Source: Escherichia coli (GTDB lineage: Bacteria > Pseudomonadota > Gammaproteobacteria > Enterobacterales > Enterobacteriaceae). Taken from it: 64,000 nt of DNA. Shown one piece after another: positions 44,920-47,695 of this stretch (within the stretch, counting starts at the first letter, position 1; each line of letters begins with the position of its first letter). The notes beneath the pieces were generated by a model that was given only the letters and a program-made list of their open reading frames with translations, made no database searches and was not told the origin of the DNA. The stretch lies in the NCBI RefSeq assembly GCF_003334785.1, contig NZ_QOWV01000001.1; one strand, written 5' to 3'. A program made the translations under genes and the position numbers.

Positions 44920-45459
44920 GTGAATAAATCAATGTTGGCGGGTATCGGGATTGGTGTCGCAGCTGCGCTGGGCGTAGCGGCAGTGGCCAGTCTGAACGTG
45001 TTTGAACGGGGCCCGCAATACGCTCAGGTTGTTTCTGCAACCCCAATCAAGGAAACGGTTAAAACACCGCGTCAGGAGTGTCGCAACGTCACAGTGACCC
45101 ATCGTCGACCGGTGCAGGATGAAAATCGCATTACCGGGTCGGTGCTCGGCGCTGTTGCTGGCGGCGTGATAGGGCATCAGTTTGGTGGTGGTCGCGGTAA
45201 AGATGTCGCCACTGTTGTGGGGGCGCTGGGTGGTGGATATGCCGGTAACCAGATCCAGGGCTCTCTCCAGGAAAGCGATACTTACACGACTACGCAACAG
45301 CGTTGTAAAACGGTGTATGACAAGTCAGAAAAAATGCTCGGTTATGATGTGACCTATAAGATTGGCGATCAGCAGGGCAAAATCCGCATGGACCGCGATC
45401 CGGGTACGCAGATCCCGCTAGATAGCAACGGGCAACTGATTTTGAATAACAAAGTATAA
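44920..45459 (+). CDS. ycfJ: Glycine-zipper (Rick 17 kDa antigen-like) membrane protein YcfJ (179 aa, GTG start)
   Basis: GTG at 44920, preceded by AGGAGG, gives (M)NKSMLAGIGIGVAAALGVAAVASLN..., 179 aa as recalled for YcfJ. Confidence 0.85.
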   Translation: MNKSMLAGIGIGVAAALGVAAVASLNVFERGPQYAQVVSATPIKETVKTPRQECRNVTVTHRRPVQDENRITGSVLGAVAGGVIGHQFGGGRGKDVATVVGALGGGYAGNQIQGSLQESDTYTTTQQRCKTVYDKSEKMLGYDVTYKIGDQQGKIRMDRDPGTQIPLDSNGQLILNNKV

Positions 45460-45482
45460 CAAGGCTGTACTCTGCAATTTGG

Positions 45483-45516
45483 CCCCTCATTCGCTCAGGC
45501 TGAGGGGCTTTTTTTG
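45483..45516 (+). terminator. Rho-independent terminator of ycfJ
   Basis: Hairpin GCCCCTCA-ttcgctcaggc-TGAGGGGC followed by TTTTTTT. Confidence 0.75.
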
Positions 45517-45520
45517 CGAC

Positions 45521-46153
45521 TTATTTCACCAGTTCGGGCCATAAACGCAAAGTCGTTCCGGCAATCTGCATCAGTTTTTCCAGCGATGCACCTTCGCGTG
45601 CGCTGATCGACATCCCCTGAATAATACAATTAAGGAATTCTGCCAGATGTGTCACGTCACAGTGGGGCGGGATTTCCCCGCGCGCTTGTCGTTGACATAA
45701 AAACTGCTGCAAAGTGCGCTCTTGCATCGCATGGCGTGATTTCAACGTATTGGCGATATCTCCTGAATCTGGGGAGAGGGTGGTGCAGTTGTTGATCATG
45801 AAGCAGCCTGCCGGGGTGTCTTTGCTGGTAAAGCAGTTGGCGATGGCAGCAAAATAGTCAGCCAGCGCAGACTCCACGCTTTTCTCTTCACAAAACAGCT
45901 GTGCTTCATGCTTAGCGGCAAAACGATCGATATAGCGGTCGAGAACGGCACGAAATAACCCCTCTTTGTTGGTAAATTCCGCGTATAGCGTGGGCGCTTT
46001 GGCTCCGGTCGCTTCGACGAGGTCCGCAAGAGAAGTCGCTTCATAACCGTGTTGCCAGAACAATTTCATGGCCTTATCAAGCGCGGCATCCCTGTCGAAC
46101 ACTTTTGGGCGGCCACGGCTTTTTTTTACACATTGTGTTGAGTCAGTTGCCAT
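45521..46153 (-). CDS. comR: TetR-family transcriptional repressor ComR (210 aa)
   Basis: Start at MATDSTQCVKKSRGRPKVFDRDAALDKAMKLFWQHGYEATSLADLVEATG (TetR HTH) gives 210 aa, matching recalled ComR (YcfQ). Confidence 0.88.
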   Translation of the reverse strand: MATDSTQCVKKSRGRPKVFDRDAALDKAMKLFWQHGYEATSLADLVEATGAKAPTLYAEFTNKEGLFRAVLDRYIDRFAAKHEAQLFCEEKSVESALADYFAAIANCFTSKDTPAGCFMINNCTTLSPDSGDIANTLKSRHAMQERTLQQFLCQRQARGEIPPHCDVTHLAEFLNCIIQGMSISAREGASLEKLMQIAGTTLRLWPELVK

Positions 46154-46309
46154 GATGCCGTTGTACCTGGTGACTGTGAATGAAAGGTTATTATAAAAAT
46201 AATCACCTCCGTTCACCAGTCCAGATCCCATAAAAATAATTGCTTTCTATTTAACTGAAATTTAAAGATTTTTAAATTAATTAATGATTGTTATAAAAAA
46301 TATCTTGTA

Positions 46310-46325
46310 TGTGATCCAGATCACA
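46310..46325. promoter_or_regulatory. CRP-consensus palindrome in the comR / bhsA divergent intergenic region
   Basis: TGTGA-TCCAGA-TCACA: both half-sites match the CRP core consensus TGTGA-N6-TCACA exactly; contains two GATC sites; 69 bp upstream of the bhsA ATG. Confidence 0.5.
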
Positions 46326-46393
46326 TCTATCATTTAGTTATCGATCGTTAAGTAATTGCTTGCGACGTCATTCATCTGCATAAGGCCACTATT

Positions 46394-46651
46394 ATGAAAA
46401 ACGTAAAAACCCTCATCGCTGCGGCGATTTTAAGCTCCATGTCATTTGCCAGCTTTGCGGCTGTCGAAGTTCAGTCAACGCCAGAAGGCCAACAAAAAGT
46501 CGGTACAATCAGTGCTAACGCGGGGACAAATCTGGGATCGCTGGAAGAGCAGCTGGCGCAAAAAGCGGATGAGATGGGCGCAAAATCTTTCCGTATTACT
46601 TCTGTAACCGGTCCGAATACCCTCCATGGAACAGCAGTAATTTATAAATAA
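46394..46651 (+). CDS. bhsA: Stress-response / biofilm outer-membrane protein BhsA (85 aa, YdgH/BhsA family)
   Basis: MKNVKTLIAAAILSSMSFASFAAVEVQSTPEGQQKVGTISANAGTNLGSLEEQLAQKADEMGAKSFRITSVTGPNTLHGTAVIYK; matches recalled BhsA (YcfR). Confidence 0.92.
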   Translation: MKNVKTLIAAAILSSMSFASFAAVEVQSTPEGQQKVGTISANAGTNLGSLEEQLAQKADEMGAKSFRITSVTGPNTLHGTAVIYK

Positions 46652-46690
46652 GCATTAACCCTCATTAATGCCTGCTACTGCTGATTTTTT

Positions 46691-46724
46691 CCCCGCGACA
46701 TGCCGTGTCGCGGGGATTTTTTTA
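46691..46724 (+). terminator. Rho-independent terminator of bhsA
   Basis: Hairpin CCCCGCGACA-tgcc-GTGTCGCGGGG followed by ATTTTTTTTA. Confidence 0.8.
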
Positions 46725-46732
46725 TCCGGGCT

Positions 46733-47695
46733 TTACAGCGTTTGTGGGCTCACTTGATGACGGCGGACATCCACCGGCATCCCGGAACGGACATCCATCA
46801 CATGTTGCATCACTTCAGCGTCAGTTTGTGCTGCATCTTTAAATGATTGCATTGCGCTATTCAGCGTAATTGGCAGCAGCTGCGGATCGTCATCAATCTT
46901 CTCTGACAGCGGCTGATGTACTTCAACCAGACGCGCACCGTTTGGTTCGGCAGAGACTTTTATCGGAGTGTTGATGATATTCACTTTGGTGCCTGGGGTG
47001 ACCTGGCTAAAGAGTGTTTTGATATCGTCATCCCGCAGACGAATACAGCCAGAACTTACCCGCATGCCAATGCCGAAATCGGCGTTCGTACCATGAAGCA
47101 AATAAACGCCGCCATAGGCCGCCAGACGAATCGCATGATGGCCCATTGGGTTATCCGGTCCAGCCGGCACTACCGCAGGCAACTCAATTCCCTGTGCTTT
47201 ATAACGGGCGCGGATGTTTGCCGTTGGCGTCCAGGTTGGGTTTGCACGTTTGTCTGAAACGGTGGTCACCATTGTCGGTGTCAGCGTGTCACCACCTAAC
47301 TGACCAATACCTATTGGATACACGGTTACCGAATTTTTACCCGGCGGGTAGTAATAGAGACGCAGCTCCGCAATGTTGATCACAATGCCTTCGCGCGGCG
47401 CATCTGGAAGTAGGGTTTGCAACGGGATCGTTAACACGCTGCCCGCGCGCGGTACGTAAGGATCAACGCCGGGGTTAGCCTGTAACAGAGCGAGAAAGCC
47501 GACGTTGTATTTTTTGGCGATGGCTTCCAGAGAACCACCGTCATTTTCCACCACATGAAATTTGTTTTCGCCAACCAGACGACTGCCCGCTGGCGGCAGC
47601 GGCCAGGTGTTGGCTTTTGCCGGTAGCGCCAGCGCCACGGCAGCGGCGAACGTAAAAAACGTTAGCCAGCGAGAAAAACGCGTTTTGATCATCAC
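46733..47695 (-). CDS. ldtC: L,D-transpeptidase LdtC/YcfS (320 aa, GTG start)
   Basis: (M)MIKTRFSRWLTFFTFAAAVALALPAKA... with signal peptide, LysM region and YkuD catalytic domain (...HGTNADFGIGMRVSSGCIRL); 320 aa from the GTG matches recalled LdtC. Confidence 0.88.
   Translation of the reverse strand: MMIKTRFSRWLTFFTFAAAVALALPAKANTWPLPPAGSRLVGENKFHVVENDGGSLEAIAKKYNVGFLALLQANPGVDPYVPRAGSVLTIPLQTLLPDAPREGIVINIAELRLYYYPPGKNSVTVYPIGIGQLGGDTLTPTMVTTVSDKRANPTWTPTANIRARYKAQGIELPAVVPAGPDNPMGHHAIRLAAYGGVYLLHGTNADFGIGMRVSSGCIRLRDDDIKTLFSQVTPGTKVNIINTPIKVSAEPNGARLVEVHQPLSEKIDDDPQLLPITLNSAMQSFKDAAQTDAEVMQHVMDVRSGMPVDVRRHQVSPQTL

Follow-up and report, generated by a model that had tools for sequence, protein, structure and literature searches.

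A consensus-strength CRP site between comR and bhsA of Escherichia coli and its predicted place within the bhsA promoter

The comR-bhsA region and its CRP site

The DNA analyzed here (the window, the whole stretch of 64,000 nucleotides) corresponds to Escherichia coli K-12, with the gene order ndh-ycfJ-comR-bhsA-ldtC-mfd and a sequence identical to K-12 over the stretch that holds the site under study. The genes comR and bhsA diverge from a 240-bp spacer (46154-46393) that is rich in A+T (68.8% vs 48.3% for the whole window) and contains four GATC motifs, against an expectation of 1.06. The bhsA product matches the NCBIfam BhsA equivalog at 137 bits (cut-off 90), and an Rfam scan of 45400-46900 returned nothing above gathering scores. 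The genes and the features proposed for the spacer are collected in Table 1.

Table 1. Genes and sequence features of the comR-bhsA region. A window position equals the NC_000913.3 position minus 1,122,679.
Feature	Position	Strand	Basis or remark
comR (ycfQ), TetR-family repressor of bhsA	45521..46153	-	ORF, RefSeq annotation
Predicted comR -10 hexamer TATAAT, in invariant block ATTATAAAAAT	46190..46195	-	Conserved block
Box U, TTAATGATTGTTAT in E. coli	46281..46294	no strand	Candidate second ComR site upstream of the predicted -35
Predicted bhsA -35 hexamer, TTGTAT in E. coli	46305..46310	+	Conserved hexamer
cAMP-CRP binding site TGTGATCCAGATCACA	46310..46325 (NC_000913.3 1,168,989-1,169,004)	no strand	Exact match, PWM, ChIP-seq listing, conservation
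Left Dam GATC in the CRP box	46313..46316	no strand	Present in 4/73 spacers, all Escherichia
Right Dam GATC in the CRP box	46319..46322	no strand	Present in 73/73 spacers
Predicted bhsA -10 hexamer TATCAT	46328..46333	+	Conserved hexamer
Box D, 28-bp dyad CATTTAGTTATCGA/TCGTTAAGTAATTG	46331..46358	no strand	Candidate ComR (TetR-family) operator, from the predicted -10 to about +18
bhsA (ycfR/comC), DUF1471 stress and outer-membrane protein	46394..46651	+	ORF, RefSeq annotation

The 16-mer TGTGATCCAGATCACA is the only perfect TGTGA-N6-TCACA found in the 64 kb when both strands were searched at zero mismatch. Dinucleotide shuffles put the chance expectation for a perfect core in the window at 0.04, with 4 of 100 shuffles giving one match. 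Since about four such cores are expected by chance in a whole genome (4.6 Mb / 4^10), the count in the window is by itself insufficient to argue against chance, and the argument instead comes from conservation and published binding. An earlier note on this DNA had described a perfect CRP-consensus palindrome between comR and bhsA, and its sequence, its place, and the AT-rich 240-bp spacer were all correctly given. The same note's remark that exact matches to both half-sites are uncommon agrees with the published in vivo CRP sites, 8 of 107 of which have both cores perfect.

The quality of the match was assessed with a symmetrised position weight matrix (PWM), which was derived from the remaining 106 in vivo CRP sites of a published ChIP-seq table and applied to all 16-mers of the window. 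With 21.4 of a possible 21.97 bits, TGTGATCCAGATCACA outscores all 106 sites that make up the matrix (maximum 20.1, median 13.0) and stands 9 bits above the next-best 16-mer of the window. Direct evidence of binding comes from the same table, which lists 111 high-confidence CRP ChIP-seq targets in ETEC H10407 (Haycocks et al. 2015, PLoS Pathog, Table 1). For the peak at 1274886, assigned to the genes ycfQ/bhsA, the MEME site is TGTGATCTGGATCACA, the 16-mer of the window in reverse complement. Additionally, a Klebsiella paper cites an electrophoretic mobility shift assay (EMSA) by Zhang, Garcia-Contreras and Wood (2007) for binding of CRP upstream of ycfR, and bhsA is described as regulated by CRP-cAMP in a SMRT methylome paper that cites EcoCyc for the statement (Westphal et al. 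2016). Searches of a Crp ChIP-exo paper and its supplements did not find bhsA. The 16-mer is a cAMP-CRP binding site of very high affinity, and it is almost certainly a bona fide CRP site occupied in vivo. The note's reading of the palindrome as a CRP site was correct, given that the same 16 bases appear in the published ChIP-seq table and, at second hand through the Klebsiella paper, an EMSA is cited for the region. By the same token, a CRP site at ycfQ/bhsA is already known from that table and from curated databases.

Conservation of the site was examined among the Enterobacteriaceae. A scan for ComR in one genome per species yielded 80 loci, 72 of which retain comR and bhsA as a divergent pair separated by 238-250 bp, and 73 orthologous comR-bhsA spacers were aligned. 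In all 73, a CRP-like box occupies the same column of the alignment; the median score of these boxes is 19.5 bits, and 72 of them exceed the median of the in vivo sites. Identity over the 16 positions of the box runs 0.64, 0.97, 1, 1, 1, 0.62, 0.56, 0.56, 0.56, 1, 1, 1, 1, 0.97, 1, 0.95; across the 73 spacers the half-sites (GTGA and TCACA) are thus held at 0.97-1.0 and the centre at 0.56-0.62, and the profile correlates with the information content of CRP sites (Spearman 0.66, p = 0.005). Fixed half-sites around a free centre are the signature of CRP, and the site is clearly under selection. There is one exception to the CRP-like pattern. Positions 10-11 of the box are GA in every spacer and the mirror-image positions vary, a difference that CRP specificity does not explain, so that something else also constrains the right half. 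The alignment consensus around the box reads TTGACg.GTGA....GATCACA..TAT.ATTT, and among complete E. coli genomes the exact 30-mer around the site is present in 5329 of 5426.

Promoter context and the sign of regulation

The alignment suggests that the box lies between the hexamers of a conserved sigma-70 promoter for bhsA. A -35-like hexamer starts 6 nt before the box in 66 of the 73 spacers (TTGACG in 59, TTGACC in 6), and TATCAT or TATGAT begins 18 nt after the box start in 64. In other genera the TTGACG hexamer sits one base further left than the TTGTAT of E. coli and ends just before the CRP box; in Escherichia, 17 bp separate TTGTAT, a poor -35 (3 of 6), from TATCAT. When promoters in the 73 spacers were ranked with a crude home-made sigma-70 scoring matrix, the one enclosing the box (TTGACG-18-TATGAT) was the best on the plus strand in 70, and the one with the invariant TATAAT before comR was the best on the minus strand in 52. 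The conserved hexamers predict a bhsA transcription start at about 46339-46341, and a published SELEX peak for the RpoS holoenzyme, at 1168238 in old coordinates, corresponds to about position 46336. By this prediction the CRP box would fill 16 of the 17-18 bases of the promoter spacer, and its centre (46317.5) would fall at about -22, a position at which a bound protein is expected to repress. Relative to the predicted start, the centre is not near -61.5 or -41.5, the positions suited to class I and class II activation; a centre at -22 argues for a repressor-type site, not against binding by CRP.

That the box would lie between the -35 and the -10 of the predicted bhsA promoter had been missed in the earlier note. 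A bhsA promoter given by Shimada 2014 (TTCACC-17-AATAAT, 46212-46240) was also considered and was rejected: its -35 lacks conservation, and its rank is third in E. coli and never first in other species.

At a promoter arranged in this way, a CRP dimer bound over the spacer could not share the DNA with RNA polymerase. CRP would then most likely serve as a second, carbon-source-linked repressor that shuts bhsA at high cAMP, and repression by CRP would add to that exerted by the local TetR-family repressor, ComR, for which copper is the inducer. We lean, by a little over even odds, toward repression through promoter occlusion as the net effect of CRP on bhsA. Published PPTP-seq data, in which comR was knocked down by CRISPRi and the activity of the bhsA promoter was recorded, bear on this point. 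The log2 change was 3.39 in M9 glucose (FC_Glu), 1.91 in LB (FC_LB), and 1.51 in M9 glycerol (FC_Gly, not significant), in a comparison for which other explanations are possible, the conditions having been measured on different sorters and with different replicate numbers. Derepression that is weakest where cAMP-CRP is high is as predicted for a second, CRP-mediated repressor, and we regard the pattern as suggestive. A response of bhsA to crp had no match among the PPTP-seq supplement rows listed.

CRP could instead activate, either at a class II-type bhsA promoter with its -10 in TCGTTAAGTAAT (start at about 46359-46361) or at the divergent comR promoter. Most catalogued CRP sites do activate, and the most frequent distances of those in the ChIP-seq study are about 40.5 and 92.5 bp upstream of starts (Haycocks et al. 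2015), whose table assigns the peak here to both ycfQ and bhsA. The weak TTGTAT of E. coli is typical of the -35 of activator-dependent promoters, and at the paralogue ybiJ a CRP box is followed after about 19 nt by TATACA, in a class II-like arrangement. However, a class II -10 at bhsA would be due about 29.5 bp from the box centre, at 46347-46352, and the sequence there is a poor GTTAAG; the shifted candidates TTAAGT and TAAGTA miss the register by 1-2 bp and are without key -10 bases. The conserved promoter predicted around the box is the top-scoring one in 70 of the 73 spacers. Toward comR, about 134 bp lie between the box centre and the predicted start, which is no standard class I distance. 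Finally, derepression upon comR knock-down is greatest in glucose, the condition in which an activator would be absent. On this evidence we consider activation unlikely.

Candidate ComR operators and the GATC motifs

Two copies of a palindrome of a different type, built on TAACGATCGTTA and as well conserved as the CRP box, flank the predicted bhsA promoter. The downstream copy, Box D, is an inverted repeat that is 82% self-complementary, with a core, TTATCGATCGTTAA, at 46338-46351 and a GATC at its centre (46343). The core TATCGATCGTTAA is invariant in 70 of the 73 spacers, and in 64 the centre of Box D lies 27 bp from that of the CRP box. The upstream copy, Box U, shares the core motif of Box D and departs from the consensus by 0-4 mismatches. 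Its consensus in other genera is TTAACGATCGTTAT, which contains the perfect palindrome TAACGATCGTTA, and its centre is 30 bp from the CRP centre in 66 of the 73 spacers. A third, weaker and partial copy of the motif (AAC.A.C.TTATAAAAA) overlaps the predicted comR -10. The PPTP-seq study reports negative autoregulation of comR, contrary to an earlier report described in a review. In the protein searches, the nearest solved homologue of ComR was CifR of Pseudomonas aeruginosa (E = 5e-32), and relatives of ComR all shared at least 72% identity with it among the matches listed. ComR would most probably bind the flanking TAACGATCGTTA-type dyads and not the CRP box, with one dyad extending from the predicted -10 to about +18 and the other just upstream of the -35. 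Judging by these sequence features, the ComR operator is probably formed by the flanking dyads, not by the 16-mer.

The earlier note had left undecided whether the palindrome is a CRP site, the ComR operator, or both. The first possibility stood; the second, whether ComR acts there alone or competes or co-occupies with CRP, now appears quite improbable. Points in favour of a ComR operator at the 16-mer are its setting and the regulation of bhsA. It is a perfect palindrome between a gene for a TetR-family regulator and a divergent target, and it overlaps the core promoter of that target, the classical location of an operator; bhsA, moreover, is strongly repressed by ComR, as the log2 3.39 upon knock-down attests. 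However, the 16-mer, the 28-bp dyad, and Box U are all palindromes that lie between regulator and target and overlap the promoter of the target, a trait that does not discriminate among them. Binding of ComR in vitro to the comC promoter region is described in the same review, which, citing Mermod 2012, locates the ComR site some 60 bp upstream of comC. The 28-bp dyad, 36-63 bp upstream of the bhsA ATG, fits this distance, and the 16-mer, at 69-84 bp, does not agree with it. A second protein that reads the right half could account for the invariant GA at positions 10-11, but the fixed half-sites and free 4-base centre match the information content of CRP sites, and the flanking dyads offer better candidates. 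The DUF1471 paralogues ybiJ, yahO, and yjfY likewise have CRP sites in front of them and lack a ComR neighbour, indicating that CRP control does not need ComR. Four species keep comR and have lost bhsA, and these loci do not separate the operator candidates because the CRP box and both dyads were deleted together. A published ChIP-exo study of YcfQ-8myc, the sole in vivo map of ComR, reported three weak sites elsewhere and no peak at bhsA, a point against ComR binding at the flanking dyads. Overall, the best explanation, to which we assign a probability of roughly 60%, is that a CRP site in the bhsA promoter spacer would repress and that ComR would act from the flanking dyads.

The GATC motifs raise a further question. 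The note had pointed to two Dam sites within the palindrome, and both are present; the right one is conserved outside Escherichia and the left one is not. GATC in both halves is found in 4 of the 107 in vivo CRP sites, and the bhsA site is the sole one to combine this with two perfect cores. Beyond the box, the central GATC of Box D is present in 70 of the 73 spacers and that of Box U in 27. GATC occurs in only about 21% of in vivo CRP half-sites, and the right GATC is therefore more conserved than CRP specificity alone predicts, an invariance that is unexplained.

With GATC in its half-sites, bound CRP should hinder Dam, and the adenines would stay under-methylated at high CRP occupancy. The interplay of occupancy and methylation that the note had envisaged is plausible and has a precedent, in that a GATC upstream of bhsA belongs to a list of 66 sites at which methylation shifts in the course of long-term culture, a list that also includes the CRP-controlled mtlA region (Westphal et al. 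2016). In the SMRT data for strain ZK126 the entries are 1072523 and 1072524, which represent a single GATC of the bhsA non-coding region on its two strands (Westphal et al. 2016, Table S2). The published coordinate, however, matches none of the four spacer GATC motifs exactly. Judged by distance to the yccS site in W3110 and MG1655, a distance of 146,820 or 146,821 was required, and the nearest values were 146,831 and 146,837; ZK126 apparently has about 23.5 kb of extra DNA between bhsA and ycgM/fadR. The variably methylated GATC may be that at 46313, that at 46319, or that of Box D at 46343.

These motifs could be taken as parts of a pap/agn43-type epigenetic switch dependent on Dam, in which methylation and occupancy exclude one another and give rise to heritable ON and OFF subpopulations for bhsA. 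In its favour are the pair of GATC sites within the CRP box together with the one in the middle of the adjacent dyad, the conservation of the right site (73/73) and of the Box D site (70/73) beyond what CRP requires, and the significantly time-varying methylation of both strands upstream of bhsA. The motifs do lie inside a protein-binding site, but the paired arrangement is confined to Escherichia (4 of 73 spacers) and so cannot be a conserved function, and roughly a fifth of in vivo CRP half-sites (the ~21% above) contain GATC anyway. Partial methylation at CRP-protected GATC sites, a group that here includes mtlA of the same table, is a known passive effect; Wang and Church in 1992 and Hale and colleagues in 1994 reportedly ascribed it to occupancy. 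In the data considered here, nothing pointed to bistable bhsA expression or to an epigenetic switch. We judge a switch of this kind very unlikely. A chance palindrome without function, for which one could cite the approximately four perfect cores expected per 4.6-Mb genome and the match in 4 of 100 window shuffles, is refuted for practical purposes by the published ChIP-seq occupancy and by retention of the column in 73/73 species while neighbouring unconstrained bases vary, along with presence of the exact 30-mer in 98% of complete E. coli genomes.

Significance and comparison with known systems

As a CRP site, the palindrome adds nothing new, and its modest value is that of a clean, consensus-strength CRP box inside a promoter spacer. 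The analysis itself adds three points at the level of prediction: a location of the CRP box within the promoter spacer, which would imply repression; a proposal for the ComR operator; and the unexplained invariance of the right GATC. bhsA is among the most stress-inducible genes of E. coli, and its phenotypes are reportedly glucose-dependent, as Zhang and colleagues are said to have found in 2007. CRP as a second repressor, if true, would explain this dependence as well as the medium-dependent derepression upon loss of ComR. For the still-undefined ComR operator, the spacer alignment supplies a concrete and testable proposal. A more elaborate scheme can be drawn, namely a three-protein device conserved across the Enterobacteriaceae in which CRP sits in the promoter spacer between two ComR dyads (at 30 and 27 bp), each element has a GATC, the right one of the CRP box being invariant for a reason other than CRP specificity, the bend induced by CRP aids bridging by ComR, and cooperative co-repression is coupled to methylation feedback and cell-to-cell heterogeneity; we hold this to be improbable.

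Among known systems, the closest counterpart is the catalogued CRP target ycfQ/bhsA itself (Haycocks et al. 2015; EcoCyc), which is the same locus and the same 16 bases, without any difference at the level of the site. For this target, the table of Haycocks et al. (2015) gives no promoter position, sign of regulation, ComR, or GATC.

With respect to the GATC motifs, the bhsA box resembles those of mtl and cdd, where GATC sites are protected by CRP and under-methylated; in all of them a GATC is part of the TGTGATC half-site of a strong CRP box. mtlA shares with the bhsA-upstream GATC the list of variably methylated sites (Westphal et al. 2016). Compared with mtl and cdd, the box at bhsA differs in having, in E. 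coli, GATC in both halves, as in 4 of 107 in vivo sites, and a third GATC 24 bp away in the putative ComR dyad.

The putative 28-bp ComR dyad with its second core copy resembles the two-site or long-dyad operators of TetR-family proteins such as CifR and QacR IR1, a likeness that concerns the candidate flanking dyads and not the 16-mer. For CifR, a two-site arrangement was reportedly described by Ballok and colleagues in 2012. CRP sites located between or beside the operators of a local repressor are familiar from the lac promoter, where the CAP site is inside the LacI O1-O3 loop, and from CytR-CRP nucleoprotein complexes. These systems have in common with bhsA a fixed spacing, here in the order Box U, 30 bp, CRP, 27 bp, Box D, and the likeness is one of analogy only. 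The protein order at bhsA (putative repressor, CRP, repressor) is the inverse of that in the CytR systems, and the 57 bp between the candidate operators do not correspond to a whole number of helical turns.

Examples of repressive CRP sites lying over a core promoter are gal P2 and cyaA P2. At these promoters, as predicted for bhsA, a CRP dimer over the -35/-10 region excludes RNA polymerase. The starts and the repression were established experimentally for gal P2 and cyaA P2, whereas at bhsA both are predicted, and the bhsA box, wholly inside the predicted spacer at about -22, would occupy an unusual register.

Repeated and conserved elements around comR and bhsA

The spacer between comR, which encodes a TetR-family repressor, and the divergent stress gene bhsA carries a direct repeat, AAC.A.C.TTATAAAAA, whose comR-proximal copy bears the comR -10 element (TATAAT, minus strand) and whose second copy, corresponding to the candidate ComR-operator dyad Box U, bears TATAAC on the same strand. 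This arrangement, which is relevant to the reported autoregulation of comR, could represent an additional, second promoter for comR or else a third site for ComR. The spacer alignment revealed additional conserved blocks, aaAAATaa and TAT...taTGAAa..TAa, and the spacer as a whole was marked as H-NS-associated in a SELEX study. In the bhsA 5' leader, 3' of the second candidate dyad (Box D), the same alignment identified a half-site-like element, CTTGCGAC, represented by TTAACGAC in other genera, and a second conserved element, CATTCATCTGC, immediately 5' of the Shine-Dalgarno sequence.

The longest comR reading frame (236 aa) has a counterpart among proteins predicted by automated annotation (P0001). 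A start at 46153, yielding a 210-aa product, is backed by both RefSeq and the alignment, and the 236-aa call therefore engulfs the comR promoter. At the other end of the locus, the small RNA bhsB (b4832) overlaps the bhsA 3' end and the bhsA terminator in the RefSeq annotation; an Rfam scan at bhsB returned hairpin-type matches, all of them sub-threshold.

Positions of features in the window and of CRP boxes at DUF1471 paralogues
Feature	Position	Source
comR-proximal repeat copy	46178-46203	window
Second repeat copy (Box U)	46280-46300	window
Conserved spacer blocks	46232-46268	spacer alignment
Conserved leader elements	46362-46382	spacer alignment
ATG of longest comR ORF	46231	window
Extra stretch of 236-aa comR	46154-46231	window
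bhsB	46624-46723	RefSeq annotation
ybiJ CRP box (L085)	centre 57.5 bp upstream of ATG	NC_000913.3
yahO CRP box (L086)	centre 116.5 bp upstream of ATG	NC_000913.3
yjfY CRP box (L087)	centre 139.5 bp upstream of ATG	NC_000913.3

Variation in locus and genome structure

Four loci, from Enterobacter sp. ENT03 and Bisph1, Pseudescherichia vulneris and Escherichia sp. ESNIH1 (L058, L062, L072, L073), have lost bhsA and most of the spacer by deletion; comR adjoins ldtC, only the comR-proximal promoter block of the spacer is kept, and these comR copies are orphan genes that lack their known target. Kosakonia sacchari SP1 possesses two comR-bhsA modules (L061, L076), whose ComR proteins are 75% and 69% identical to that of E. 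coli, and in the second module the CRP box, with the sequence AGTGATGTAGATCACA, is retained along with Box D and Box U.

In the methylation data, the ZK126 positions (Westphal 2016, Table S2) place bhsA ~23.5 kb farther from ycgM/fadR than in W3110 or MG1655, and the yccS-bhsA distance shows a ~11-17 bp mismatch with these strains; together, these discrepancies indicate that the ZK126 reference differs in structure from both K-12 references.

CRP sites among DUF1471 paralogues

Four DUF1471 paralogues, bhsA, ybiJ, yahO and yjfY, have upstream CRP sites in the CRP ChIP-seq table (Haycocks et al. 2015), and the DUF1471 family as a whole may be under CRP control. At ybiJ, a TATACA hexamer lies ~19 nt downstream of the CRP box in NC_000913.3, an arrangement that resembles a class II layout and from which that of bhsA differs.
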